This document shows positions 1 through 21,441 of a DNA stretch of 32,000 nucleotides, piece by piece. The position numbers and the translations under genes are program-made. The stretch is from Bellilinea caldifistulae. Lineage in GTDB: Bacteria; Chloroflexota; Anaerolineae; Anaerolineales; Anaerolineaceae. The stretch covers positions 90,001 to 122,000 of the forward strand of contig NZ_LGHJ01000018.1 in assembly GCF_001306055.1 (NCBI RefSeq), given 5' to 3'. The stretch's first letter is position 1. Every line of letters starts with the position of its first letter. A model generated the notes under the pieces. It had not been told where the DNA came from. It was given only the letters and a program-made list of their open reading frames with translations, and made no database searches.

Positions 1-828
1 CGGCAGCACAGCCGGCATTTACCCAATGCCCGAAAACAACTTCGCCAGAAATCGCAGGAAGTTCCGATATCGCCACCGGAATTGACTATTGTGACGCTGG
101 GCAGAATCCAAATTTCGCTCGGAGACCACATGATTACAGGTATGGAGTGGCGCTCTCAAACAGCCCGTGATTTGATGCTGTTGTTGATGCTTCACCCCGA
201 AGGTCTAACCAAAGAACAGGTCGGACTGATCTTCTGGCCGGATATCAGTCCGGGTGAATTGAAGATCCGATTCAAGAATACTATTTACCGATTACGCCAC
301 GCTGCCGGCAAAGATGTGGTGGTTTTTGAAGACGACATTTACTACTTCAACCGCGCCATGGATTACGAGGCGGATTTTGAGACGTTTAATCGCGAAATTC
401 AACTTGCCGGGCTTGCCCGAAAGCCAGAACAGGAAATTGAGCATTATCGTCATGCGATTGAACTGTATAAAGGCGAATTCTTGCCGGAAATTAACGAGGA
501 ATGGGTCGTTGTCGAAAGGGAGCGTCTGCACCAAAAGTACATTACCGCTTTGAGGCGATTGGCCGAGTTGTATCTGGAGACTTCTCAACCGGTGGAAGCG
601 CTGGCGTTTGCCAATAGATACCTTCAATATGATCCTCTCAATGAAGGTGTTCACCAGCTGATTATGCGATGTTATGCCAGCATGGGGAATGTCAACATGG
701 TGATCAAGCAATACCAGACATTGAATTTCATACTGGAAAGTGAGCTGGGCGCTCAGCCGAGTCCGCAAACAATCTCACTTTATGATTTACTAACCCGCAA
801 CCGTCGCAAGACTGAGAACGATCATTGA
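1..828 (+). CDS. SARP-family (winged-helix + BTAD) transcriptional regulator; possibly 5'-truncated by the window edge
   Basis: Frame 1 has no stop from base 1 to the TTG at 82, so the CDS may begin upstream of the window. The translation shows an OmpR/PhoB-type winged helix (RSQTARDLMLLLMLHPEGLTKEQVGLIFWPD...KNTIYRLRHA). A BTAD-like helical domain follows (AIELYKGEFLPE..EWVVVERERLHQKY...DPLNEGVHQLIMRCYASMGN...LESELGAQPSPQT). This is the AfsR/DnrI/EmbR-type architecture. Confidence 0.8.
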   Translation, partial: RQHSRHLPNARKQLRQKSQEVPISPPELTIVTLGRIQISLGDHMITGMEWRSQTARDLMLLLMLHPEGLTKEQVGLIFWPDISPGELKIRFKNTIYRLRHAAGKDVVVFEDDIYYFNRAMDYEADFETFNREIQLAGLARKPEQEIEHYRHAIELYKGEFLPEINEEWVVVERERLHQKYITALRRLAELYLETSQPVEALAFANRYLQYDPLNEGVHQLIMRCYASMGNVNMVIKQYQTLNFILESELGAQPSPQTISLYDLLTRNRRKTENDH

Positions 829-844
829 TGGCTTCTTAATCAAA

Positions 845-865
845 TGTTAACATTTTGTTAACATT
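845..865 (+). promoter_or_regulatory. Tandem operator-like repeat TGTTAACATT x2 with an 11-bp period; each core TGTTAACA is a palindrome
   Basis: Read directly as aaTGTTAACATTtTGTTAACATTaaatt. Copy 1 is 845-854 and copy 2 is 856-865, one helical turn apart. It lies 17 bp after the SARP stop and about 105 bp before the ATG at 972. A weak -10-like TAAATT sits at 865-870 and there is no -35 hexamer, which fits an activator-dependent promoter. The function is inferred. Confidence 0.45.
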
Positions 866-899
866 AAATTGCCCAAAAACAGCCTCAAAACCGGTTTAC

Positions 900-919
900 G
901 GAAGCCTCTTTGGAAGCCT
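900..919 (+). repeat. Direct repeat GGAAGCCT x2 (12-bp period) in the leader of the micropeptide operon
   Basis: The copies are at 900-907 and 912-919. AGCCTCT (903-909) is the exact complement of AGAGGCT (962-968), which overlaps the Shine-Dalgarno GGAGAGG (960-966) of the ATG at 972. Confidence 0.5.
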
Positions 920-971
920 ACCCCTGATTAAACTGGATTTATCCAAACACAAGAAAAAAGGAGAGGCTGAA

Positions 972-1097
972 ATGAAAAAGATCAATTCCCGTGTTGTTTT
1001 GTTCGTTCTGACGGTTGCCCTGTATGTTCTGGGTTCTGGTGCACCGGAAGCTGGCGGCGGAATCATCAACAGCATCATCAATTTCCCGGGCTGGTAA
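972..1097 (+). CDS. 41-aa micropeptide with an N-terminal signal/anchor-like segment (hypothetical)
   Basis: The ATG at 972 lies 5 nt after GGAGAGG (960-966), and the stop TAA is at 1095-1097. The sequence is MKKINSR, then a hydrophobic stretch VVLFVLTVALYVLGSGA, then PEAGGGIINSIINFPGW. The longer 80-aa track ORF starts at a TTG inside the operator repeat with no SD, so it is less likely. I recognise no family, and whether it is coding is unproven. Confidence 0.5.
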   Translation: MKKINSRVVLFVLTVALYVLGSGAPEAGGGIINSIINFPGW

Positions 1098-1122
1098 TCT
1101 CCCTCTCAAACTTTTTGCTTGA

Positions 1123-1710
1123 ATGATACTCCTCACAGCCGTCATCGCAGGCCTGACTCTGGGTCTAATTCGAGCAAAAATCGGCAATCGCCCGTACCGT
1201 CCGTTCTCCTTTCGGTGGGGGTGGATGGTGGCGGCGGCGCTCATCCTTCAATGGCTTGCATTTGGTTTTCCGCTTACCCGAACCATTTACCCGGATGAGG
1301 CAGCCAGTATCAGTTTAGTACTTTCACAATCCATATTGCTCATTTTTGCATGGTTCAATCGGAAAATTCCCGGTTTCTGGCTTTTGACCATCGGGCTGGT
1401 GATGAACCTGCTGGTTATCAGTGCCAACGGCGGTTTTATGCCGATCAGCCCAGACACCGTCCAATGGTTGCGCGGAGACGCCGTCACGGCTGGTTGGGAG
1501 GTGGGAGAACGGTTAGGAACGGGAAAAGATGTTGTGTTGCCGGTTGAACAAACCAAACTCGAATTTCTTTCCGACCGTTTCCGAACGCCGGACAACCCCT
1601 ACTATCGGGTTGCCTTCAGTGCAGGCGATGTATTGATTGCTTTGGGTGCATTCTGGTTGTTATGGTCAGTCGGCGGCCGGTTTGAACGAAATTCGGGAAA
1701 GGAGATTTAA
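1123..1710 (+). CDS. DUF5317-family integral membrane protein
   Basis: It has about 5 hydrophobic helices and the pattern I associate with DUF5317 (PF17248): N-terminal MILLTAVIAGLTLGLIRAKIG, then ANGGFMPIS, then a C-terminal LEFLSDRF....FSAGDVLIALGAFWLLW. It starts 25 nt after the micropeptide stop. Confidence 0.75.
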   Translation: MILLTAVIAGLTLGLIRAKIGNRPYRPFSFRWGWMVAAALILQWLAFGFPLTRTIYPDEAASISLVLSQSILLIFAWFNRKIPGFWLLTIGLVMNLLVISANGGFMPISPDTVQWLRGDAVTAGWEVGERLGTGKDVVLPVEQTKLEFLSDRFRTPDNPYYRVAFSAGDVLIALGAFWLLWSVGGRFERNSGKEI

Positions 1711-1712
1711 CG

Positions 1713-2000
1713 ATGACACCTACATTGATGGATTCGAGAAAACCCACTTATCGAGATGTTTCGGAAGAATATGGACGTATTCTCACCGCGGCGGTGATCA
1801 GCGCTCAGTTTCGTCAATTGCTGCTCAGCAATCCGGCTAAGGCACTTGCGGCTGGCTTTGGCGGCGAGGCGTTTCACCTTAGCAGTGAGGATCGTTCACG
1901 TCTGGTAGCGATCCGGGCTACCTCTCTGGCTGATTTCGCTTCTCAATTGAGTGGTTACAATGCAAACCGCTCGGTTCAGTCGGCGGTGTGTGGAGATTAG
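1713..2000 (+). CDS. Small NHLP-clan / LigA-like helical protein (95 aa), function unknown
   Basis: The ATG lies 2 nt after the preceding TAA, with GGAAAGGAG inside the end of the upstream gene, so the two are translationally coupled. The segment FRQLLLSNPAKALAAGFGGEAFHLSSEDRSRLVAIRATSLADFASQL resembles the nitrile-hydratase-leader-peptide / LigA-subunit-like helical repeat (xLLxNPxxAL...LSxEExxxL). The family call is from memory and has not been searched. Confidence 0.6.
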   Translation: MTPTLMDSRKPTYRDVSEEYGRILTAAVISAQFRQLLLSNPAKALAAGFGGEAFHLSSEDRSRLVAIRATSLADFASQLSGYNANRSVQSAVCGD

Positions 2001-2022
2001 AGGTTTGTATTTTTAACAAGAA

Positions 2023-3252
2023 ATGGGGATACCGGAAACTGTTTCCCTGCCTGTGCATCGAAGCTCGCGTTTTTGCTCACAAGGAATGGACTCCATGATT
2101 ACAGGGAATCTTTATTTTGGCGGGGATTTTTTAAACCGCTTTGGGAAATTCCAATCTCCCCTCTTGACAGAGGTATGGGGGGAATCGGGCGATCTGGCTG
2201 CGCAATGGCTGCAGGTTGAAGGATCGTCCAGTTTGCTTTTTGAAATAACCGTCAAGGCAGTTGAACTGCTGGATGTCAAGCATTCTCAGGTTCTTGTCTT
2301 ATGTGCGGATGGGACCTTTCACCGACAGGCATTTTATCAGGCTCAAACTTTGTTGAGCCGTTCCAATGGAGTTTTACGCAATTATCCACGTCTGAATCAT
2401 TTTCTTCAAAAAGTTGTGCTTAGCGATGGACCAGTTCTGATCGGGTATCGAGATGCTTTTTTAGGTGTGGAAGAACGGCGGGTATTGAAGCTGCAAGCCA
2501 ACGAAAATCTGGTATTTTTCCCAATGAGGTTAGAAACCGAACCTGTTGGTATTTTTGGCCTTTGCTTCGACCGTTTTCATACGATTGAGCAGCGCTTACC
2601 GCTGGCGATGATGTTTGCCGAACAGGCTGCTCAAGCCATTCAGCGAGAGGGGCTGGCGCTAACGGAGGAGGAATCCGCCGTTGAGATTGTATTGGCGCTG
2701 GCCAAAGCGCAAGAGGCTAGAGATTTATCCACCGGCTCGCATTGCCGAAGAGTGACCCGTATGGCCGAACAGATTGCCTTGCGCATGGGTTGCACTTTTC
2801 GTGAAATTCAGGATATTCGCAGGGCAGCCCTGTTACACGATCTTGGGAAGATCGGGATCCCGGATCAGATTCTACATAAACCCGGCCCGCTCACCGAACG
2901 TGAATGGGCGGTCATGCGTCAGCACCCGGAGATTGGGGCAAGAATTTTGCGGCTGGTACATGGATTAAGCGAGGTTGCCCAACTGGTGCTGGCTCATCAT
3001 GAACGTTATGACGGCTCAGGTTATCCTTATGGATTGAGTGGGGATGCGATCCCGTTGGGTTCTCGAATTCTGGCCGTAGTGGATGCTTTCGGGGCGATGA
3101 CAACCGATCGAGTCTATCGGCCAGCGTTGTCTTTTCGGGATGCACTGGCAGAGTTAAAGCGGTGTGCGGGCACCGATTTTGATCCGAAAGTGGTGGATGT
3201 TTTCTTGGAAATGATGAACGCAGACTCGGATGGGATGGAAGATGTAGGGTGA
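2023..3252 (+). CDS. HD-GYP domain c-di-GMP phosphodiesterase with an N-terminal GAF-like sensor domain
   Basis: It has the HD motif (AALLHDLGKIGIPDQIL) and the HD-GYP signature (HHERYDGSGYPYGL), followed by DAFGAMTTDRVYR. The first ~200 aa resemble a GAF fold (ENLVFFPMRLETEPVGIFGLCFDR). An alternative start is the ATG at 2086 (MDSMITG). Confidence 0.9.
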   Translation: MGIPETVSLPVHRSSRFCSQGMDSMITGNLYFGGDFLNRFGKFQSPLLTEVWGESGDLAAQWLQVEGSSSLLFEITVKAVELLDVKHSQVLVLCADGTFHRQAFYQAQTLLSRSNGVLRNYPRLNHFLQKVVLSDGPVLIGYRDAFLGVEERRVLKLQANENLVFFPMRLETEPVGIFGLCFDRFHTIEQRLPLAMMFAEQAAQAIQREGLALTEEESAVEIVLALAKAQEARDLSTGSHCRRVTRMAEQIALRMGCTFREIQDIRRAALLHDLGKIGIPDQILHKPGPLTEREWAVMRQHPEIGARILRLVHGLSEVAQLVLAHHERYDGSGYPYGLSGDAIPLGSRILAVVDAFGAMTTDRVYRPALSFRDALAELKRCAGTDFDPKVVDVFLEMMNADSDGMEDVG

Positions 3253-3272
3253 AGTCATCCCAATCTTAAGTC

Positions 3273-3311
3273 GGGTGCCCCGTGCGAAGTGTACAGCGCG
3301 ACGGGGCACCC
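3273..3311. terminator. Hairpin terminator between convergent genes
   Basis: GGGTGCCCCGT (3273-3283) and ACGGGGCACCC (3301-3311) form a perfect 11-bp stem around a 17-nt loop. ATTTATT follows on the plus strand. The hairpin sits between the HD-GYP stop (3252) and the stop of the minus-strand gene (3336). Confidence 0.7.
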
Positions 3312-3335
3312 ATTTATTAAGACGGAGTTTGTTGG

Positions 3336-3752
3336 TCAAGTGTTAGAGGCAGCGCGGCGATTGATCAGACTGATACGGACTTCTGGCAAATCGGTATAAA
3401 GCAAATATAATGCGGAGAGGAAAATGCTGATTAAGGTCAGGGAAACGTAGGAGACATTCAGCTGAACAGCGCCGTCCACGAGAATGGAGGCGCGTGGCAT
3501 GAGCAGCATCAAGCGGCTGATGATGTTGAAACCATGAGCAAAAGAAAGCAGATACCACGGCCAGGGTTGAACTGCCCCGCGAAAAACCAGTTGAATAGCG
3601 GCGATTAATGCAAAAATTGCCAGCAATAGCGGAAGCCACCACTCCTGAGTGGCGGGTGAATAAGATTCTGGAGGAAGGAGAAGGATTGGAAAAAACTGAA
3701 TAATGAATAAAAAGATAACCACATTCGGTTGGGCAAGTTTTTTCCGCAACAT
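3336..3752 (-). CDS. Hypothetical 4-TM membrane protein
   Basis: This is a 138-aa ORF with four clear hydrophobic segments. A matching promoter lies upstream on the minus strand. I see no recognisable motif. Confidence 0.6.
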   Translation of the reverse strand: MLRKKLAQPNVVIFLFIIQFFPILLLPPESYSPATQEWWLPLLLAIFALIAAIQLVFRGAVQPWPWYLLSFAHGFNIISRLMLLMPRASILVDGAVQLNVSYVSLTLISIFLSALYLLYTDLPEVRISLINRRAASNT

Positions 3753-3807
3753 AATTGAGCAGCTCCCTGAAGGAAAATGGAAGAAGGGGGAAAGGACTTA
3801 CAGGACA

Positions 3808-3836
3808 ATCTTACAATTTGTGAGTGTAATTGTCAA
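3808..3836 (-). promoter_or_regulatory. Sigma-70-type promoter for the 3336-3752 gene
   Basis: On the minus strand: -35 TTGACA (plus coordinates 3831-3836), a 17-nt spacer, then -10 TAAGAT (3808-3813). Confidence 0.45.
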
Positions 3837-3871
3837 GCAATGCCGCCCAAAAATTAGAGGAAGTTAAACAC

Positions 3872-3900
3872 TTGACAATTTGAGCATGTTTCTCTATTAT
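3872..3900 (+). promoter_or_regulatory. Sigma-70-type promoter of the ABC importer operon
   Basis: -35 TTGACA (3872-3877), an exact 17-nt spacer, then -10 TATTAT (3895-3900). The predicted transcription start near 3907 gives a ~200-nt leader. Confidence 0.6.
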
Positions 3901-4105
3901 ATGCACTATGCAATTTCATGCAACATCGAAATTGCTGATTTCGATTAATTCCCTCTTTTTTATCATTGATATGCGAGGAGTTGCCTTTCGGGAAGGAGGT
4001 GGTATTGTTCCACACAAGTAACAGCGAAGATCGCAGGCACAGACTGGCTCTGATGCCCGATGGGGGATAAAAATTGAATAATTTTCATCATTCATTTGCC
4101 AAACT

Positions 4106-5284
4106 ATGGAGGAGAAAATGCGTTTCGTAAAGTTTTTCAGTTTGTTGATTGTAGCTGCCCTGATTCTCTCGGCGTGCGCTCAAGGCGGAAGCACCGGCGG
4201 CCAGCAGAAAGAATTGAAGGTGGCAATTTTAGCGCCTTTGTCCGGGCCAGTGCCGACCTTCGGGGTATCCACCCGTGACGGCGCCTTGATGGCGATTGAT
4301 GAATGGAACGCCAAAGGCGGTGTGTTGGGCATGAAAATTGTCCCAATTGTTGAGGACAGTCAATGCACACCTGATCCTGCGGTCAATGCGGCAAATAAGG
4401 TCATTGATCAGGATGGCGTGAAATTCATCATCGGCGAGGTGTGCTCCAAAGCATCCATTCCGGTGTCCGAAATTGCTAATGCCAAAGGTGTCATTCAAAT
4501 CAGCCCTACCTCCACCAATGAACAGGTTACGGTGGATGCGAATGGGAATGTGAAGCCCTATATCTTCCGCGCCTGTTTCATTGATCCATTCCAGGGCTTT
4601 GTCGGCGCTAAATTTGCTACGGAACAGCTGGGCGCAAAGACTGCCTTTGTCATGCTGGATCAGGCGAATGACTATGTTAAGGGTCTGGCGACCGAATTTG
4701 CAAAGAATTTCGAGATGATGGGTGGCAAGGTGGTTGGTACCGTGTCGTACACTTCCACCGATACCGACTTCTCGGTCATCCTCGGCAAGATTGCCGAAGC
4801 CAAGCCGGATGTGGTCTACCTGCCGGATTACTACAACATTGTCAATCTGGTTGCAAAGCAGGCCAAGGAAAAAGGGATCAATGTGCCCTTCATCGGTGGT
4901 GACGGTTGGGACTCTCCGGATCTGGATCTGGCGGCAGCCGCTGGTGGATATTTCACCAATCACTATTCGCCGGATGATCCGCGCCCCGAAGTGGTCAACT
5001 TCTTGAAGGCCTACGGCGAAAAGTACAAAGATGAAAGCGGCAATCCGAAAGTTCCGGATGCGCTGGCTGCTCTGGCTTACGATGCTGCCAACGTATTGCT
5101 GCAGGCGATCAATGATGCCGGTACGACCGATACTGCCAAGGTGAAAGACACCCTGGAAAAAATTACCTATAAGGGTGTTTCCGGTACCATCACCTTTGAT
5201 GCCAATCACAATCCCATCAAATCTGCCGCCTTGCTGGCAGTCAAACCTGACGGGGTCAAGTTCGAGACTATTGTCAACCCCTAA
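4106..5284 (+). CDS. ABC transporter substrate-binding lipoprotein, branched-chain amino acid (LivJ/K, type I PBP) family
   Basis: It has a signal peptide with lipobox LSAC (MRFVKFFSLLIVAALILSAC). The typical Leu/Ile/Val-binding-protein layout follows (KVAILAPLSGPVPTFG..., GVKFIIGEVCS). The true start may be the ATG at 4118, just after GGAGGAG (4108-4114). Confidence 0.9.
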   Translation: MEEKMRFVKFFSLLIVAALILSACAQGGSTGGQQKELKVAILAPLSGPVPTFGVSTRDGALMAIDEWNAKGGVLGMKIVPIVEDSQCTPDPAVNAANKVIDQDGVKFIIGEVCSKASIPVSEIANAKGVIQISPTSTNEQVTVDANGNVKPYIFRACFIDPFQGFVGAKFATEQLGAKTAFVMLDQANDYVKGLATEFAKNFEMMGGKVVGTVSYTSTDTDFSVILGKIAEAKPDVVYLPDYYNIVNLVAKQAKEKGINVPFIGGDGWDSPDLDLAAAAGGYFTNHYSPDDPRPEVVNFLKAYGEKYKDESGNPKVPDALAALAYDAANVLLQAINDAGTTDTAKVKDTLEKITYKGVSGTITFDANHNPIKSAALLAVKPDGVKFETIVNP

Positions 5285-5308
5285 TTGTGCATGGTATTAA
5301 CCAATCTG

Positions 5309-5346
5309 TGGAGGGCAACCTCGAGTTGCCCTCCATCTTTGGTTTG
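5309..5346 (+). terminator. Intra-operon hairpin / partial terminator after the binding-protein gene
   Basis: TGGAGGGCAAC (5309-5319) and GTTGCCCTCCA (5325-5335) form a perfect 11-bp stem around a 5-nt loop. The T-rich run TCTTTGGTTTG follows. Confidence 0.6.
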
Positions 5347-5408
5347 ATATTCTTTCCTTCGCTTTCATCCCAGGAGACAGGTATTCTCAATTTGGAGGTG
5401 CTCGGCCG

Positions 5409-6542
5409 ATGCAACAGGTGAGCGGTTCATCTCAAGTGGTCATTCCCGTGCCTAAAAAGAAAAAACAGCCACCCCTTGCTTGGGTTGGTCAGGGGTTTTT
5501 CATTTTACTGGGTATTGTTGTAGTGGCGATTTTAATCAGTAACCTGATCCGCCAGCCCACTTTATTTGCTCAATTTTTTATCAGTGGGTTGCAATTAGGA
5601 TTTGTGTACGCCCTGATCGCATTGGGCTACACAATGGTTTATGGAATCGTCAAATTAATCAATTTTGCTCATGGCGATGTGTTCATGGTGGGAGCCTTTG
5701 TTTCTTATTTCGCGGTGGCCCGCTTCCGGCTGCATCAGTGGCCGCTGGCAGCTTTTCCGCAAATCTCACCCGGTCTCGGTGTGGTGATCGGATCGCTTAC
5801 TGTTATCTTGCTCTCGATGGTGATTTGCTCCGCCCTGGCCATTACGATTGAGCGAGTGGCTTATAAACCCTTGCGGGATGCACCTCGCATCGCCGCTTTG
5901 ATTACCGCCATTGGTGTTTCTTTCTTTTTGGAATATTTTGGGGCTTTGAATTTTGTTTTTTCGCCTCGTTTTATCCCATATGAACGACCGTTTGAAGTGG
6001 TAGCCTGGTATATCAAGGATGGCATTCATCTGATTAAACCGGGCGAAGCGCCGCCGGATGGCGCAATTACTTTCTCAAATATTTTGTTGATTATCATCGT
6101 TGCCTCCATTCTTGTGCAAATCTTTTTACAATTTTTAGTGAGGCGAACCAAGATTGGAATTGCCATGCGGGCGTCCTCGTATGATAAGCCTGCAGCCCGA
6201 TTGATGGGCATCAATGTTGATTCGGTGATTTCCTTCACCTTTGCAATTGGGGCTGCTTTTGCCGGTCTTGGCGGGGTTTTGTATGCGATTGCGTATAGTT
6301 CAATCTGGACTCAGTTGGGTATTCTGCCCGGTCTGAAAGCCTTTGTTGCGGCAGTCTTGGGTGGGATTGGAAGTATTCCCGGTGCTTTTGTCGGAGCGTT
6401 GATCATGGGACAGGCAGAAGCCATGACGATGGGTTACATTTCAACCCCCATGCGGGATGCCGTGGCTTTTACAATCTTGATCATTGTGCTTCTCATCCGA
6501 CCGACTGGCATTTTCGGTGAACCTGAAAAAGAGAAGGTATAA
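5409..6542 (+). CDS. livH: Branched-chain amino acid ABC transporter permease (LivH family)
   Basis: GLQLGFVYALIALGYTMVYGIVKLINFAHGD is the LivH signature region. SD GGAGGTG lies 9 nt upstream of the ATG. A ~45-aa N-terminal extension carries an extra TM segment. Confidence 0.9.
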   Translation: MQQVSGSSQVVIPVPKKKKQPPLAWVGQGFFILLGIVVVAILISNLIRQPTLFAQFFISGLQLGFVYALIALGYTMVYGIVKLINFAHGDVFMVGAFVSYFAVARFRLHQWPLAAFPQISPGLGVVIGSLTVILLSMVICSALAITIERVAYKPLRDAPRIAALITAIGVSFFLEYFGALNFVFSPRFIPYERPFEVVAWYIKDGIHLIKPGEAPPDGAITFSNILLIIIVASILVQIFLQFLVRRTKIGIAMRASSYDKPAARLMGINVDSVISFTFAIGAAFAGLGGVLYAIAYSSIWTQLGILPGLKAFVAAVLGGIGSIPGAFVGALIMGQAEAMTMGYISTPMRDAVAFTILIIVLLIRPTGIFGEPEKEKV

Positions 6543-6554
6543 AGGAGAGCCCTG

Positions 6555-7919
6555 ATGGAACTTGGATTTCTCTTGGGTTCAATTGTTAAAATTTTAGGGA
6601 TTTTGGCTTACTTATATGGTTTGTTGTGGGTGCTAGCACGCCCTAACCGCTGGGTTAAACTTATTGGGGTGGTGGGAGCTTTTGGGGTGGTGCAATTAGC
6701 CCTGACGGATTTTGGCGGCTTTCAGATCCTGACCAATTTCGACAGCGGTTTGCTGTTTCAGGCCTGCGCCATGACCATGGTTGCACTCGGTTTGAATCTG
6801 ATTTACGGGTTCAACGGGCAATTCAGCCTTGGTCAATGGGGCTTTTATGGAATTGGCGCCTATACGGCTGCGGATATCACCTACCGCTGGGTTAATGGAG
6901 ACGCCAGAGGTCTGCTGGTGGTGGGTTTTGGCACAATTCTGGGCGGACTGGCGCTCATTTACATTGGGCGCTGGTTAAAACGCTTTCGGGGCGTGCCGGT
7001 ACTTTCGTCTTTTACACTCTATTTGATCGGCGCTATTCTGGCAGGAACTGTGGCGGTTTACATTGGCAATGCGCTCAATCCCATGTTTGAACCGTTGCTT
7101 GGCACCAGCCTGAATCCGGGCATTCTCAATTCTCCGTTAGCTTTGCAAATTGTCTTTTTCCTTGCGGTGGTGTTTGCCGGTATTTTCGCGGCGGAAGTGA
7201 GCTTTCTGTTCGGCTTGCCGGTATTGACGCTGGGTTCGGATTACTTTGGGATTGCCACCCTGGGCTTTACGATTGTGGTCAATGTTCTGATGATCAACTC
7301 GGATACCATATTACCCTTCCCGGAAATGAAAGGCGGTCGTGGTATGGTGGGGATTCCGAAGCTGACAACCTGGTTCTGGGCGTTTTTCTTCATGATGGCA
7401 GTTATCATTATCATGAGAAATTTGATCCAATCCAGCACCGGCCGGGCAATCATCTCTGTGCGCGAGGATGAAGTAGCCGCTAAGGCAATGGGTATTGACG
7501 TGGCCGGTTCAAAATTACTGGCATTCGTGGTGGGCAGCTTTTTCGCCGGGGTTGGTGGGGCGGTGTATGCTCACTTTATCGGTTTCCTCAGTCCCGGAAC
7601 ATTTGGCTTTTTACAAAGTTTCAATCCTCTGATTATTATCGTGTTTGGCGGGTTGGGTAGCATGACGGGTACGATTGCGGCATCTTTTGGCTGGATCTTC
7701 TTCCTGGAAGGTTTGCTGCGGGTGTTGCTCAGTCAGATGGGTACCGAGGCGCCAACCTGGCGGTTTGTCTTGTATCCTATCACGTTGTTGCTGTTGATGC
7801 TGATTCGACCGCAGGGTTTGCTGGGAAATATCGAGTGGGGCTTTTTGAAGCAGAAAGACGTGCTGCCGCGAGAAACCTCCGCGGTTGATCAACCCGAAGT
7901 TGCGGCCAGTAAAGCCTGA
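6555..7919 (+). CDS. livM: Branched-chain amino acid ABC transporter permease (LivM family)
   Basis: This polytopic protein has LGLNLIYGFNGQFSLGQ and the C-terminal LMLIRPQGLLG typical of LivM. It lies 12 nt after livH. Confidence 0.9.
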   Translation: MELGFLLGSIVKILGILAYLYGLLWVLARPNRWVKLIGVVGAFGVVQLALTDFGGFQILTNFDSGLLFQACAMTMVALGLNLIYGFNGQFSLGQWGFYGIGAYTAADITYRWVNGDARGLLVVGFGTILGGLALIYIGRWLKRFRGVPVLSSFTLYLIGAILAGTVAVYIGNALNPMFEPLLGTSLNPGILNSPLALQIVFFLAVVFAGIFAAEVSFLFGLPVLTLGSDYFGIATLGFTIVVNVLMINSDTILPFPEMKGGRGMVGIPKLTTWFWAFFFMMAVIIIMRNLIQSSTGRAIISVREDEVAAKAMGIDVAGSKLLAFVVGSFFAGVGGAVYAHFIGFLSPGTFGFLQSFNPLIIIVFGGLGSMTGTIAASFGWIFFLEGLLRVLLSQMGTEAPTWRFVLYPITLLLLMLIRPQGLLGNIEWGFLKQKDVLPRETSAVDQPEVAASKA

Positions 7920-7932
7920 GGAGACCTTGACA

Positions 7933-8721
7933 ATGACCACCATTTCAACAATCCTCGAAATCAGTGATCTGACCAAATTTTTTGGCGGTTTGGGGGCAGT
8001 GCGGAATTTTGACCTGACCCTCAAAAAAGGTGATTTGAATGGATTAATTGGCCCCAATGGGGCAGGAAAAACCACCGTTTTCAATTTGATCACCGGTATT
8101 TACGAACCGACCGCTGGGGATATTGTCTTCAACAATACTTCCATCGTCGGGTTAGAGCCGTTCGAAATTACCCGTTTAGGAATTGCGCGAACCTTTCAGA
8201 ATATCCGCCTGTTTTCCAACCTGACCGTTCTGGATAATGTCCGTATCGCCTATCATCCGCATACCAAATACGGTATGGCGGATGGTATCCTGCATAACCG
8301 TAAGTTTGATGTTCATGAAAAAGAATTAACTGAAAAAGCACAGGACTTTCTGGCGATTTTTGGGTTGGAAAACCTGCAAAACGAAATTGCGAAAAATCTG
8401 CCGTACGGCCAACAACGACGGGTTGAAATTGCCCGTGCGCTGGCTTGTGAACCGCGTTTGTTGCTGCTGGATGAACCAGCAGCCGGGATGAATCCGCGTG
8501 AGATTCTGGAGTTAATGGATCTAATCCATTTCATCCATGATCGCTTTGACCTGACCATTTTGCTGATTGAACATCAAATGCGGGTGGTGATGGGAATTTG
8601 CAAATATATCACCGTGATGGACTTTGGTCAGGTGATCGCGCGTGGAACGCCGAAGGAAATTCAGGAAAACGAACGGGTGATTGAGGCTTATCTGGGAAAA
8701 GGAGCCGGTCATGCTGCTTGA
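7933..8721 (+). CDS. livG: Branched-chain amino acid ABC transporter ATP-binding protein (LivG family)
   Basis: Walker A GPNGAGKTT, signature LPYGQQRRVEIARAL and Walker B LLLLDEPAAG are all present. I prefer the ATG at 7933 (MTTISTILEISDLTKFFGG), preceded by GAGGAG, over the track start at 7885. Confidence 0.9.
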   Translation: MTTISTILEISDLTKFFGGLGAVRNFDLTLKKGDLNGLIGPNGAGKTTVFNLITGIYEPTAGDIVFNNTSIVGLEPFEITRLGIARTFQNIRLFSNLTVLDNVRIAYHPHTKYGMADGILHNRKFDVHEKELTEKAQDFLAIFGLENLQNEIAKNLPYGQQRRVEIARALACEPRLLLLDEPAAGMNPREILELMDLIHFIHDRFDLTILLIEHQMRVVMGICKYITVMDFGQVIARGTPKEIQENERVIEAYLGKGAGHAA

Positions 8722-9418
8722 GGTTGAAAATCTGAATGTTTATTACGGGGCAATTCATGCCTTACAAGGTGTTTCTTTTCACGTTGAGGAGGGCGAAATT
8801 GTTACCCTGATCGGCGCCAATGGCGCTGGTAAATCCACAACCCTGCGCACCATCTCTGGTTTGCTGCGTTCGCGTACCGGACATATCAAATTCAAAGGTC
8901 AGGATATTTCGATGATGCCAGCCGATCAAATTGTCAGGCTGGGCATCAGTCATGTGCCGGAGGGGCGCAAGATTTTTGCTCCTTTGACCGTGAAAGAGAA
9001 CCTGTTGATGGGAGCCTACACCCGTAAAGATCCCAATGAAATTGAACGATCCATGCAACGCGTGTTCGCCAGCTTCCCACGATTAAAGGAGCGTTTGAAT
9101 CAACTGGGAGGGACTCTTTCAGGTGGAGAGCAGCAGATGCTGGCAACCGGCCGGGGATTAATGAGCCGCCCGACTTTGCTGATGATGGATGAACCTTCGA
9201 TGGGGTTAAGTCCCATCCTGGTTGAAGAAATCTTCAACATCATCAAGGACATCAACTCGCAAGGGACCAGCATTCTTTTGGTGGAACAAAACGCTCAGAT
9301 GGCGCTTTCAATTTCACACCGGGCGTATGTGCTGGAAACGGGACGGATCGTTCTTTCTGGTAGCGCAAAAGAGATTGCTGAAAATCCACGGGTAAAAGAA
9401 GCCTATTTAGGCGTATAG
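8711..9418 (+). CDS. livF: Branched-chain amino acid ABC transporter ATP-binding protein (LivF family)
   Basis: Walker A GANGAGKST, signature LSGGEQQMLATGRGL and Walker B LLMMDEPSMG are all present. The ATG at 8711 (MLLEVENLNVYYG) overlaps the livG stop by 11 nt. Confidence 0.9.
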   Translation: MLLEVENLNVYYGAIHALQGVSFHVEEGEIVTLIGANGAGKSTTLRTISGLLRSRTGHIKFKGQDISMMPADQIVRLGISHVPEGRKIFAPLTVKENLLMGAYTRKDPNEIERSMQRVFASFPRLKERLNQLGGTLSGGEQQMLATGRGLMSRPTLLMMDEPSMGLSPILVEEIFNIIKDINSQGTSILLVEQNAQMALSISHRAYVLETGRIVLSGSAKEIAENPRVKEAYLGV

Positions 9419-19561: not shown

Positions 19562-20186
19562 GACGGCATTAATCTGGGGAGTAACAGGCGGAATTGGCTC
19601 TGCGCTGGCAAAATTATTAGCGAAGGAGGGCTGGCAGGTTGCAGGTACGGCGAGAGATGAAATACAGGCTCGCCGAATTGTCCCCTTAGCCTTTGAGGTG
19701 GATGTTGCTAATCCATTTTCTGTGCGGGAAGGTGTGGCTGCCATTGCGCAGGAAATTATCAGCGTGGATTGGTGGGTTTTCGCAATCGGTGATATACTTT
19801 CAAAATCGGTCAGCGAGATGAGTGATGTGGAATGGCAGAAAATCTTAAACGCCAATTTGAACGGCGTTTTTTATGCAATCCACGAAAGTCAGGCACTCTT
19901 GAGTGACGGAGCGCCGGTTTACATCCTGGGGGCAGTCAGTGAACGAATGCGCCTTCCCGGTTTAGCGGCGTATGCTGCTGCAAAAGCCGGGGTGGAAGCC
20001 TTTGCTGAAGTACTGCGCAAGGAAATGAAAAGAACCGTTGTGGTTGTAAGGCCGGGAGCGGTCAACACCGATCTATGGAAAAAGGTACCCTTTCGGCTAC
20101 CCGCTAATGCACTCAACGCAGAAGATTTGGCTCGAAAGATGTATTCGGCATATCAAAATAACTATAAAGAATTGTTTTTGGATTAA
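19554..20186 (+). CDS. Short-chain dehydrogenase/reductase (SDR) family oxidoreductase
   Basis: It has the cofactor motif GVTGGIGSA and the catalytic YAAAK. The ATG at 19554 is preceded by GAGGAG and overlaps the upstream stop by 8 nt. Confidence 0.85.
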   Translation: MSKTALIWGVTGGIGSALAKLLAKEGWQVAGTARDEIQARRIVPLAFEVDVANPFSVREGVAAIAQEIISVDWWVFAIGDILSKSVSEMSDVEWQKILNANLNGVFYAIHESQALLSDGAPVYILGAVSERMRLPGLAAYAAAKAGVEAFAEVLRKEMKRTVVVVRPGAVNTDLWKKVPFRLPANALNAEDLARKMYSAYQNNYKELFLD

Positions 20187-20187
20187 C

Positions 20188-21441
20188 ATGGTTTGGGATT
20201 ATCAGCATCTGATTTCCAGACGGCTGCTGTTGTGGAGTTCAATCAGCATCGTCGTGTCGGGATTGGTCTTTGGTCGGGGGGATTTTTGGCGCGGCTTTGC
20301 CATTCAGGCATTGGTGTGGGCAGCGGTGGACGCAATAATTGCCGTGTTTGGCTTGCGTTCTTCCTTGCCGCGCCTTTATCTGCCGGTGGATTTGGCAATC
20401 GCAGAGAGAGAAACGAAAAAACTGCGTAAAATTTTATGGATTAACGCCGGTCTGGATGTCCTTTATATTACCGGAGGCAGTTTGCTTTATATCGCCAACA
20501 CTGCTTCCGACCCATTTCTGGCCGGTACAGGTGCAGGCATCATTCTGCAAGGTGGTTTCTTGCTCCTCTTTGATCTGTGGCATGCGCTTCATACCCCACT
20601 GGAAACACGCTTGCCAGATCTGGGCATTTTCAAAGAACCCCAGCATGATACCACCGACTTAATGGGTGAGCATGGCGGAGCAGTACTGGTGGTACATGGC
20701 TTTCCAGGCAGTCCGGCTGAGATGGCTGCGCTGGGAGAGGCTCTGAACAAAGCCGGCTGGCATGTGCGCCTGTTGCGTTTACCCGGACACGGAACGGCTT
20801 TTTCTCAGCTGTTTCAAACCCGCGTCACAGAATGGGTGAGTGAGGTGGAAAAGAACTTGATGGAGTTGCGCCAGAATTTCTCGCCGGTCTTGCTGATGGG
20901 CTATTCTCTTGGCGGGGGGATTTCGATGGCGGTGGCCAGTCGCAGCAAACCGGATGGTCTGATCCTGCTTTCTCCGTTCTGGAAAGCCGAACCCTGGTGG
21001 GTCAAATGGGTGGCGTTACCGGTCAGAACGCTCCTGCCAGTGTCCATCTATCCTTTTCGGACGCGTTGGCTGAAGCCGGAGCAATTCCGGGCTGCTTCAA
21101 CCGAACTGCTGCCGGGATTTGATTTGGATGATCCGCAGGTGCGGCAATCTTTGATGGACATCCGCTTACCCATGGTGTTTTTGGAACAGTTTAGACGGTT
21201 GAGCCAGCTGATCATCAGGGGTTTAGCGCATATTCAGGTTCCAACTCTGGTGGTGCAAGGAAAATACGATCCGGTAGTATCCCCCCAGGGTACGCGGGCT
21301 TTGATCCAGCAGATTCATGCACCCCTCCAGTATGTCGAAACGGAAGGGGATCACAACATAAATCAACGTTCCAACCGCGGCTATGCTGAAACGGAAACCG
21401 CTGTACTAAAATTTGCGGCACAGTTTCAAAAATCCGGTTAA
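20188..21441 (+). CDS. Fusion protein: 4-TM N-terminal domain + alpha/beta hydrolase (carboxylesterase / lysophospholipase-like)
   Basis: The ATG at 20188 lies 1 nt after the SDR stop. Residues ~1-165 form four hydrophobic helices. The hydrolase core follows: VVHGFPGS, nucleophile elbow GYSLGGG and a late GDHN. Confidence 0.8.
   Translation: MVWDYQHLISRRLLLWSSISIVVSGLVFGRGDFWRGFAIQALVWAAVDAIIAVFGLRSSLPRLYLPVDLAIAERETKKLRKILWINAGLDVLYITGGSLLYIANTASDPFLAGTGAGIILQGGFLLLFDLWHALHTPLETRLPDLGIFKEPQHDTTDLMGEHGGAVLVVHGFPGSPAEMAALGEALNKAGWHVRLLRLPGHGTAFSQLFQTRVTEWVSEVEKNLMELRQNFSPVLLMGYSLGGGISMAVASRSKPDGLILLSPFWKAEPWWVKWVALPVRTLLPVSIYPFRTRWLKPEQFRAASTELLPGFDLDDPQVRQSLMDIRLPMVFLEQFRRLSQLIIRGLAHIQVPTLVVQGKYDPVVSPQGTRALIQQIHAPLQYVETEGDHNINQRSNRGYAETETAVLKFAAQFQKSG

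Follow-up and report, generated by a model that had tools for sequence, protein, structure and literature searches.

A run of four closely spaced genes in Bellilinea caldifistulae raises the question of whether they form a signaling unit and, if so, of what kind. They encode, in order, a 41-aa micropeptide (micro41), a membrane protein of the family DUF5317, a 95-aa helical protein (p95) and a GAF-HD-GYP phosphodiesterase, and the end of a regulator gene lies upstream. The DNA analysed, called the window here, was a 32,000-nt stretch of contig NZ_LGHJ01000018.1 (positions 90,001 to 122,000). A sequence-only reading of the window had proposed an undescribed module for peptide-to-cyclic di-GMP (c-di-GMP) signaling. 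Listing of the open reading frames (ORFs) showed four genes on the forward strand at 972–1097, 1123–1710, 1713–2000 and 2023–3252, with gaps of 25, 2 and 22 nt as in that reading. The four-gene unit is part of a five-gene cassette, regulator included, that is conserved across Anaerolineae-type Chloroflexota, and whose function we infer to be that of an accessory sensor module that serves second-messenger enzymes and is controlled by an activator.

Scanning of a genome collection with the DUF5317 alignment gave 339 loci, all from Chloroflexota. The best 80 (L001–L080) were analysed; they came from Anaerolineaceae, Caldilineaceae, Ardenticatenaceae and Thermoflexales, with DUF5317 identity down to 44%. 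Synteny was scored by tblastn of the window proteins on these 80 loci, ORF clustering and motif search. Among the matches listed in a protein search, DUF5317 homologues were from Chloroflexota, the nearest being from metagenome-assembled genomes (MAGs) of Bellilinea/Anaerolineaceae, and tblastn of plasmids with DUF5317 gave zero matches. The p95 gene was located directly downstream of DUF5317 in 80/80 loci, and a micro41-type ORF was present in 79, the sole exception having no upstream sequence. Of the 71 loci whose sequence extends more than 2 kb upstream, 67 have the regulator gene there, in the same orientation. In 65 of the 80 loci p95 was followed by an HD-GYP gene, usually 20–270 nt downstream, and ORF clustering revealed no further conserved gene family across the set. 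This synteny excludes chance juxtaposition and, together with the purifying selection on the small ORFs described below, indicates that the module is real and conserved. The sequence-only reading had staked its case on synteny in relatives and on conservation of the two small ORFs; both were clearly found, and the module is indeed tied to HD-GYP and a SARP-type activator.

In loci lacking the HD-GYP gene, the next gene encodes another signaling protein or something unrelated. The substitutes included a PAS-GAF-GAF protein, a HATPase_c kinase, a GAF-HisKA-HATPase kinase in a distant clade and, throughout a sub-clade with 47-aa micro41 and 71-aa p95 forms, a single REC domain. Nearly all loci examined have a signal-transduction gene after p95, its type varying beside a constant trio. 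Because REC, kinase and PAS-GAF genes replace it while micro41 and p95 stay, the HD-GYP gene is the variable part; micro41, DUF5317, p95 and the regulator are the invariant core, and HD-GYP is the commonest of several outputs. The sequence-only reading had the relation reversed, with the small proteins as lineage-specific additions to a conserved DUF5317/HD-GYP couple. That couple holds only in part: the link recurs in a paralogous arrangement with MASE9-HD-GYP, but HD-GYP is absent or replaced in part of the loci.

Some loci differ from the window in gene number or order. Locus L027 (6001–10145), and also L072, has a variant order with the upstream regulator absent; in L027, three p95 genes alternate with three micropeptide genes after DUF5317, and genes for a P-loop protein resembling ParA and for a GH3-family protein (similar to adenylating amido-synthetases) come next. 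The cultured strain Ornatilinea apprima P3M-1 (L065; NZ_LGCL01000041.1, 5377–8246) has a complete cassette in which the micropeptide gene is present as four tandem copies.

The 3′ end of the regulator gene occupies positions 1–828 (+), and these 276 codons encode the SARP domain and a linker only. The reading frame is open to base 1, the left edge of the window, and orthologues are 1,074–1,124 aa in length; the window ORF is therefore the C-terminal quarter of a large protein, which by comparison with the orthologues is about 1,089 aa long when complete, and just its output domain lies in the window. A small stand-alone SARP was rejected on the same two grounds. The sequence-only reading correctly named a SARP/BTAD regulator, which proved to be the end of a large MalT-type protein and not a small SARP. 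The BTAD domain (PF03704) scored 82.7 bits against a cut-off of 22.1 (E = 4.5e-23), and the AfsR model aligned window residues 27–235 with AfsR 52–263. BTAD following an OmpR-type winged helix, the mark of the SARP family, was found in the window ORF, although the winged helix gave no separate Pfam match.

Orthologous regulators carry AAA_16, TPR_MalT, TPR_12 and BTAD. Residues 10–526 of the L003 orthologue match the MalT equivalog NF003420 (E = 6.7e-66), the Walker A motif AAPAGYGKTSL is present in the N-terminal STAND (signal transduction ATPase with numerous domains) part of the orthologues, and WHD_MalT was found in the regulators of L081 and L082. When tested in orthologues, the features of MalT and LAL (large ATP-binding LuxR-type) activators were thus present in the form of a nucleotide-binding oligomerization domain (NOD) ATPase with Walker A, a MalT winged helix and MalT-type TPR; their LuxR-type C-terminal helix-turn-helix (HTH) was not, the C-terminus being winged helix plus BTAD. 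The layout is therefore a MalT-type STAND ATPase, a MalT-like TPR region, and winged helix plus BTAD at the very C-terminus. In the literature searched, no mention was found that combined SARP, Chloroflexi and TPR.

A conserved promoter block at 892–934 (+) is where the SARP domain is predicted to bind. It contains two direct repeats of GGAAGCCT (900–907 and 912–919) with a 12-bp period and, 9 nt after the second copy, the -10-like hexamer TAAACT (929–934); no -35 match was found in the block. Alignment of eight close intergenic regions showed this block and the Shine-Dalgarno sequence of micro41 to be invariant, with diverging flanks. In a motif-chain search with a genome-wide control (1.77 Mb, both strands), 51 of 77 loci had the chained repeat ahead of the micropeptide gene, and it occurred only 4 times elsewhere. 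Forty-nine of the 51 lie no more than 420 nt upstream of DUF5317 and 2 lie farther, ahead of expanded micro41 arrays. Of 62 intervals between repeats, 58 have a 12-bp period, and a TAnnnT hexamer begins 9 nt past the operator core in 29 of 49 loci. Across the 80 loci, 2–6 direct repeats stand in the same place with lineage-specific cores (TTGAAGCC, TTGCATCC, GTAGCC, TGAGCC and TGTATCC; also GCATCC, GTAAGC and GAGCC variants). The operator of O. apprima P3M-1 has 2–3 copies of TTTTGAAGCCT.

The published rule for SARP promoters, drawn from AfsR, is direct repeats at 11- or 22-bp spacing that overlap the -35 region, with 8 bp between the 3′ repeat and the -10 element (PMC10936776). The block at 892–934 resembles these promoters in having direct repeats in place of the -35 box that end 8–9 nt from the -10 box, the distance to TAAACT being 9 nt, or 8 nt if the repeat unit takes in the following base; its 12-bp period departs from the rule. 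It is likely, in our judgment, that the STAND-SARP protein uses the 12-bp repeats to activate the operon. The core covaries loosely with the amino acid that follows the recognition-helix Arg: GCATCC occurs with R or K in 10/10 loci and GAAGCC mostly with H; this covariation is only suggestive because shared ancestry confounds it. In distant clades (L086 4660–4735; L082 5735–5775), the core is TGTAAGC(A/G) with a 12-bp period and about 9 nt to TATAAT or TATTAT. Such a change of core with the geometry kept suggests coevolution with the DNA-binding domain.

The sequence-only reading had assigned the operator to another repeat, GTTAACA, at 845–866 (+). This repeat exists as described, two copies of TGTTAACATT(T/A) with an 11-nt period, 17 bp past the regulator stop codon, but it was kept only in the four nearest relatives (L001–L004) and gave way to unrelated sequence in L005–L007; the conserved repeat is that at 900–919. 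The GTTAACA repeat is probably not the SARP operator; another regulator may bind there, or the repeat may serve the regulator gene as a weak terminator. It doubles as overlapping AT-rich palindromes at 838–870 (arms 838–852 and 856–870, 87% complementary).

The micro41 gene (972–1097, +) is preceded by the strong Shine-Dalgarno sequence GGAGAGG (960–966, +), which was confirmed and is invariant in 7 relatives. The gene, proposed from the sequence to encode a peptide of secreted or anchored type, is real, as its presence in nearly all loci and purifying selection show, with proportions of nonsynonymous differences (pN) of 0.03–0.07 against synonymous ones (pS) of 0.35–0.6, a ratio of about 0.1. 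The product is a bitopic micropeptide with a basic N-terminus of variable length, one conserved transmembrane (TM) helix (R-x3-FVLT-x-xLFVL) and a short tail rich in Gly. The TM helix is conserved position by position (R at -14, T at -7 and F at -3), which sets it apart from a cleavable signal peptide, and G-A-P is invariant within [GA][AS]GAP. The tail is exactly 8 residues long in 47 of 75 members (xAxGGxGx, with Cys at position 2 in 11) and 14–17 residues in the Bellilinea clade, the window copy being EAGGGIINSIINFPGW; that of O. apprima P3M-1 is FCVGGVGG. Identical or near-identical tandem copies occur in L004 (2), L029 (2), L065 (4) and L080 (4), and the three copies of L027 alternate with three of p95. 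No family was found in Pfam or NCBIfam, and scanning of micro41 as a family against NCBIfam gave chance matches only. The peptide would be oriented N-in/C-out.

The DUF5317 protein (1123–1710, +; 195 aa) was assigned correctly by the sequence-only reading: PF17248 scored 118.8 bits against a gathering threshold of 25, covering model positions 2–151 of 151. Five TM helices are predicted, and the conserved features are an acidic loop of about 65 aa (residues 102–166), the motifs NGGxMPISP, KD, LSD and FSxGD, and polar residues in or at the ends of TM helices (Q43, N79, N95, N102, S166 and D169). The AlphaFold 2 (AF2) monomer model had a predicted local distance difference test (pLDDT) score of 86.6 and a predicted template modeling (pTM) score of 0.81. 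The acidic loop is predicted to face outward, on the same side as the G-A-P motif of micro41. Foldseek of the model against PDB returned noise only (best E = 2.9, TM-score < 0.3), and the profile had no match among PDB sequences. Catalytic motifs resembling those of signal peptidase (SMxP / K / SxDSR), GxGD aspartyl protease and AgrB were weighed and dropped, given mismatched registers, the lack of an invariant Cys or His, and the lack of fold support. DUF5317, PF17248 and Franean1_4349 were nowhere mentioned in the literature searched.

An exhaustive profile search revealed 3,650 DUF5317 representatives (50% identity) at E ≤ 1e-3, of which 177 at ≤ 1e-30 constitute this clade. Many other DUF5317 genes are solitary, with no signaling neighbor. 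A paralogous arrangement, type B, consists of a conserved 33-aa single-TM peptide (MKW..K..KAV.V..VL.SLVAA.AA..KW[NH]), a MASE9-HD-GYP protein (451–484 aa) and a DUF5317 paralogue whose gene overlaps that of the HD-GYP protein by 4 nt (L082 9027–11512; L088 3248–5561; L089). It repeats the theme of a small TM peptide, DUF5317 and HD-GYP, without p95. In L082, type B is located 3 kb downstream of a full type-A cassette.

The p95 gene (1713–2000, +) starts 2 nt past the DUF5317 stop codon and encodes a cytoplasmic helical protein under purifying selection (pN 0.02–0.11, pS 0.5–0.74, ratio 0.05–0.15). Its five-helix core, E.SR(I/L)LTAAV.N..FR.LLL.NP..A...G..GE.F.L..EE.....I.A.SL.(D/E)FA.QL, is followed by a variable tail of 0–50 aa, which is conserved and ends in CGD in the Bellilinea clade and is absent in several members that end at the helical core (e.g. 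the 71-aa forms). The sequence-only reading had likened p95 to NHLP and LigA-like domains. The call is right at the superfamily level, as a single LigA-like group of ECOD takes in Frankia_peptide, NHLP-like NHase_alpha, Nif11, ComX and LigA (PMC12353581), but p95 missed every curated family cut-off among TIGR03793, NF038399 and PF14407, with 32.2 bits against 40 for NF038399 (Os1348), 25.2 against 48 for PF14407 (Frankia_peptide) and 12.9 against 50.9 for the remaining model. Many p95 orthologues have a precomputed PF14407 match. Foldseek of the p95 model gave only local matches of 30–33 residues, to nitrile hydratase (NHase) alpha and the proteusin precursor 8tb1 (E 4–10).

Two independent fusion proteins join a p95-like domain to the C-terminus of DUF5317: P0374 (357 aa) and P0260 (304 aa). 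Comparison of P0374 with the p95 profile by hhalign gave a probability of 95% and E = 2.7e-8, and its gene (L081 6001–7074; JACQGU010000282.1) lies between a MalT-TPR-BTAD regulator and a REC gene. On account of these two natural fusions, p95 would work at the cytoplasmic C-terminal end of DUF5317, provided that the fusions are genuine.

The HD-GYP gene (2023–3252, +) encodes 409 aa from 2023 or 385 aa from 2095. The ATG at 2095 has AAGGA (2081–2085) 9 nt upstream, the first 24 codons from 2023 lack a Shine-Dalgarno sequence and are not matched in most orthologues, and orthologues are 377–388 aa long and align from residue 20–25 or so. The true start is likely 2095 and not 2023, and the gap between p95 and HD-GYP would therefore be about 94 nt, not 22. 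HD-GYP domains are defined by HD plus HHExh(D/N)GxGYP (Galperin & Chou, bioRxiv 10.1101/2021.11.05.467447). Both were found intact in the window protein, as LLHDLGK and HHERYDGSGYP, and HD_5 scored 139.8 bits, in agreement with the enzyme proposed earlier. Solved relatives, with E down to 1e-39, are V-cGAP3 (5z7c), PmGH (4mcw) and PA4781 (4r8z). The best PDB match, 5z7c, is a 3′3′-cyclic GMP-AMP (cGAMP)-specific enzyme, and 4mcw and 4r8z are c-di-GMP enzymes; the substrate of the window protein may thus be c-di-GMP or a related cyclic dinucleotide, the level of which it would lower.

Upstream of this domain, the GAF-like sensor of the sequence-only reading holds at the family level. The GAF of the window protein is very divergent and, at 17.2 bits (cut-off 22.4), sub-threshold by itself, but GAF was detected in 22/30 orthologues (best 5e-10). 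The GAF structures 3oov and 3p01 are matched by the family profile, which also aligns with PmGH (4mcw) from residue 116, including the end of its GAF, so that a PmGH-type N-terminal GAF is recognizable in the family. Across loci, the N-terminal sensor part of the HD-GYP proteins ranges from about 0 to 550 aa.

A GC-rich hairpin at 3273–3311, described in the sequence-only reading, was confirmed between the convergent HD-GYP and mem138 genes, with a folding free energy of -33 kcal/mol (z = -4.9; 0/200 shuffles equally stable). The T-run after it is weak (ATTTATT), and the terminator scan did not list it; it is probably a bidirectional terminator. Scanning with consensus sigma-70 and terminator models gave nothing useful at the operon ends, the promoter having come from comparative footprinting alone. 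The mem138 gene (3336–3752, -), which converges on HD-GYP and shares the hairpin, encodes a polytopic membrane protein of 138 aa for which neither Pfam nor NCBIfam has a family. It was found downstream in 15 loci of Bellilinea-like lineages (tblastn, 44–95% identity), 14 of them in the ORF cluster, and lies outside the core cassette.

These features can be joined into an activator-driven operon, a membrane sensor complex and a LigA-like adaptor feeding variable outputs, a scheme to which as a whole we give slightly less than an even chance. The STAND-SARP regulator, once triggered by its cue, would bind the two 12-bp-spaced GGAAGCCT repeats that replace the -35 box and activate a single micro41-DUF5317-p95-HD-GYP transcript; the anatomy of this step was observed, and its action is our inference. 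The TM helix and G-A-P motif of micro41 would then associate in the membrane with the 5-TM DUF5317 as a small membrane sensor, the outward acidic loop being the most conserved part of DUF5317. As the fusions support, p95 would dock on the cytoplasmic C-terminal side of DUF5317 and act as a cytoplasmic transmitter. A membrane complex of micro41 and DUF5317, with p95 as its cytoplasmic partner, seems to us reasonably probable. From the variable neighbor, p95 may control, or be deployed together with, the next-encoded signaling protein: here GAF-HD-GYP lowering c-di-GMP, and in other lineages REC, GAF-histidine kinase or PAS-GAF. Control of the adjacent signaling enzyme by the membrane complex, here with a lowering of c-di-GMP, is put forward more tentatively.

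Several points weigh against this scheme. Every link between two cassette proteins is putative, and the topology rests only on the positive-inside rule and the AF2 monomer model. The fusions could be gene-calling read-through artifacts of GC-rich MAGs. Co-transcription was deduced from spacing, one footprinted promoter and one hairpin, and the consensus scan found neither a promoter nor an intrinsic terminator. The operator period of 12 bp differs from the 11 or 22 bp of SARP promoters. There is no obvious route by which p95 would control a REC-only output, the scheme names neither the sensed cue nor the signal of the STAND regulator, and tandem multiplication of micro41 (up to 4 copies, with p95 also multiplied in L027) is more typical of precursor peptides.

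Precursor-like anatomy leads to two readings in which a peptide is the signal. We regard as doubtful a peptide-based signaling system of filamentous Chloroflexota in which DUF5317 recognizes or processes an anchored micropeptide of 30–50 aa at the outer face; the LigA-like domain, whose fold is known so far chiefly from leaders of ribosomal peptides and the proteins that recognize them, would be repurposed there as a cytoplasmic adaptor to second-messenger or phosphorelay outputs, with the MalT-type STAND-SARP and its 12-bp-period operator as the switch. Autoinduction by a peptide pheromone of the RNPP, Agr or ComX kind we consider unlikely. DUF5317 would release the micro41 tail or modify a ComX-like p95 tail, and the external peptide, sensed directly or after uptake by the TPR of the STAND-SARP, would induce the operon and its HD-GYP output. 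TPR domains are the peptide receptors of RNPP systems, and the regulator has such a region. Micro41 resembles a pro-peptide in its basic N-terminus, hydrophobic segment, small-residue motif and lineage-variable short tail, is present as identical tandem copies and is encoded by the first gene of an activator-controlled operon; but the tail is less conserved than the TM helix and is mostly rich in Gly, Ser and Ala. Pro directly follows its putative A-x-A site, and Pro in this position blocks signal peptidase I. DUF5317 is about the size of AgrB and adjoins a small gene, but without an invariant Cys or His it is unlike any known peptidase. No protease, maturase, ABC/PCAT exporter or Opp permease was conserved in the 80 loci. 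As to p95, the LigA-like fold is otherwise known from leaders of ribosomally synthesized and post-translationally modified peptides (RiPPs), including ComX, Nif11 and NHLP (PMC12353581), but many p95 homologues are tail-less and two are fused to DUF5317.

The same features of p95 bear on a classical RiPP cluster, in which p95 (of NHLP/Frankia_peptide type), micro41 or both would be matured by enzymes encoded elsewhere in the genome. Sub-threshold Os1348/NHLP/Frankia_peptide scores, PF14407 on many orthologues and the conserved tail of the Bellilinea clade agree with such a cluster, and SARPs classically govern secondary-metabolite clusters (PMC10936776). Os1348 is accompanied by the maturases GNAT, HEXXH and SagB (PMC7726476) and Frankia_peptide by ATP-grasp (PMC8939145); however, ATP-grasp, YcaO, radical-SAM, LanM, GNAT/HEXXH/SagB and peptidase/exporter genes were absent from the 32-kb window and not conserved in the 80 loci, and none of the genes replacing HD-GYP encodes a RiPP maturase. 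The p95 tail is dispensable, and an obligatory core peptide after a conserved leader, as in RiPP precursors, was not found. The domain is, moreover, fused to the cytoplasmic end of a membrane protein and its neighbors are signaling proteins, so that this explanation appears very improbable. A membrane effector operon, in which micro41 and DUF5317 (with p95) serve transport or envelope modification and HD-GYP, REC or kinase is merely co-regulated, is also rather improbable. The polar residues in the TM helices form a pattern typical of transporters or membrane enzymes, and the family is wide, this clade being a small part of it and many members standing alone. Against it, a signal-transduction gene follows p95 nearly everywhere and changes in type beside a constant trio, type B DUF5317 overlaps the HD-GYP gene, and no substrate-related enzyme genes are conserved nearby in the 80 loci.

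If the sensor-module scheme is true, it would provide the first functional context for DUF5317, a family with no PDB neighbor, and would add a new micropeptide family, one that annotation misses. It would place a LigA/NHLP-like domain at work outside RiPP biosynthesis, and extend the "sigma adaptation" promoters of SARP type beyond actinomycetes, with a new MalT-SARP order and 12-bp spacing. Inputs of HD-GYP proteins are an acknowledged gap in c-di-GMP biology, and a dedicated partner module makes one such input testable. As a cultured carrier of the cassette, O. apprima P3M-1 is practical for experiments.

The remainder of the 32-kb window contains housekeeping genes, encoding a Liv-type binding protein, triosephosphate isomerase, MoaA, RuvB, cyclophilin, enolase, CTP synthase, an S41 peptidase and MutL. 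The sequence-only reading had reported no maturase, protease or exporter in the window, and no maturase or exporter was found among its genes. An operon for an ABC transporter of the branched-chain-amino-acid type (4106–9418, +), with a Peripla_BP_6 binding protein followed by permease- and ATPase-sized ORFs, begins about 350 nt past mem138 and is unrelated to the cassette. At 20107–21441 (+), a 444-aa fusion of DUF6992 with an alpha/beta-hydrolase (S33-like) is encoded, which is uncharacterized. Rfam detected neither a riboswitch nor an RNA family in 1–4200. PADLOC detected no defense family, and no match to anti-phage STAND (Avs-type) models, with only generic TPR and Cas3-HD noise.

SARP, MalT-type STAND proteins, GAF-HD-GYP and LigA-like domains are known kinds, whereas the cassette, the micropeptide family, the MalT-to-SARP order, the 12-bp operator and the coupling of DUF5317 with a LigA-like protein appear to be undescribed, as the sequence-only reading had held of the composition. 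With peptide quorum-sensing loci (PlcR/PapR of RNPP type, AgrB/AgrD and ComQXPA), the cassette shares a precursor-like gene of 30–50 aa, a polytopic membrane protein of about 190 aa, a TPR activator, variable C-terminal tails and tandem precursor copies. The resemblance is one of anatomy only: no homology of micro41 or DUF5317 to RNPP or Agr components was found in Pfam, NCBIfam or PDB, and the cassette differs in having no catalytic Cys/His of AgrB, no Opp and, in most loci, no histidine-kinase receptor. Proteins of the NHLP clan and LigA-like group (Os1348 of Pseudomonas sp. Os17, PF14407, ComX and proteusin leaders) share with p95 the helical 60-aa core and the NHase-alpha-like motif AAV..FR..LL.NP..A; p95 differs in being without maturases, in its optional tail and in its occasional fusion to DUF5317.

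The HD-GYP protein resembles the GAF-HD-GYP proteins of the PmGH family in its motifs and N-terminal GAF, the differences being the very divergent GAF and the partner proteins, which are not described for PmGH and are not mentioned in the HD-GYP survey defining MASE9–12 (bioRxiv 10.1101/2021.11.05.467447). The regulator shares the OmpR-type winged helix plus BTAD with SARP activators (AfsR, ActII-ORF4, large SARPs, and SARP-LAL such as PimR), and the linkage of a STAND NOD and TPR module to SARP with AfsR. It differs from AfsR and SARP-LAL in its inverted domain order, the MalT-like NOD-TPR being first and SARP last. SARP activators are known from Actinomycetota and classically target secondary-metabolite clusters (PMC10936776), whereas the present regulator is from Chloroflexota and its target would be a membrane/second-messenger cassette. 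MalT and LAL activators are matched over the N-terminal 520 residues, with Walker A, WHD_MalT and TPR_MalT, and differ in having a LuxR-type HTH where the present protein has a SARP output domain. H-NOX is a stand-alone sensor that adjoins interchangeable signaling enzymes, a logic similar to that proposed for the cassette.

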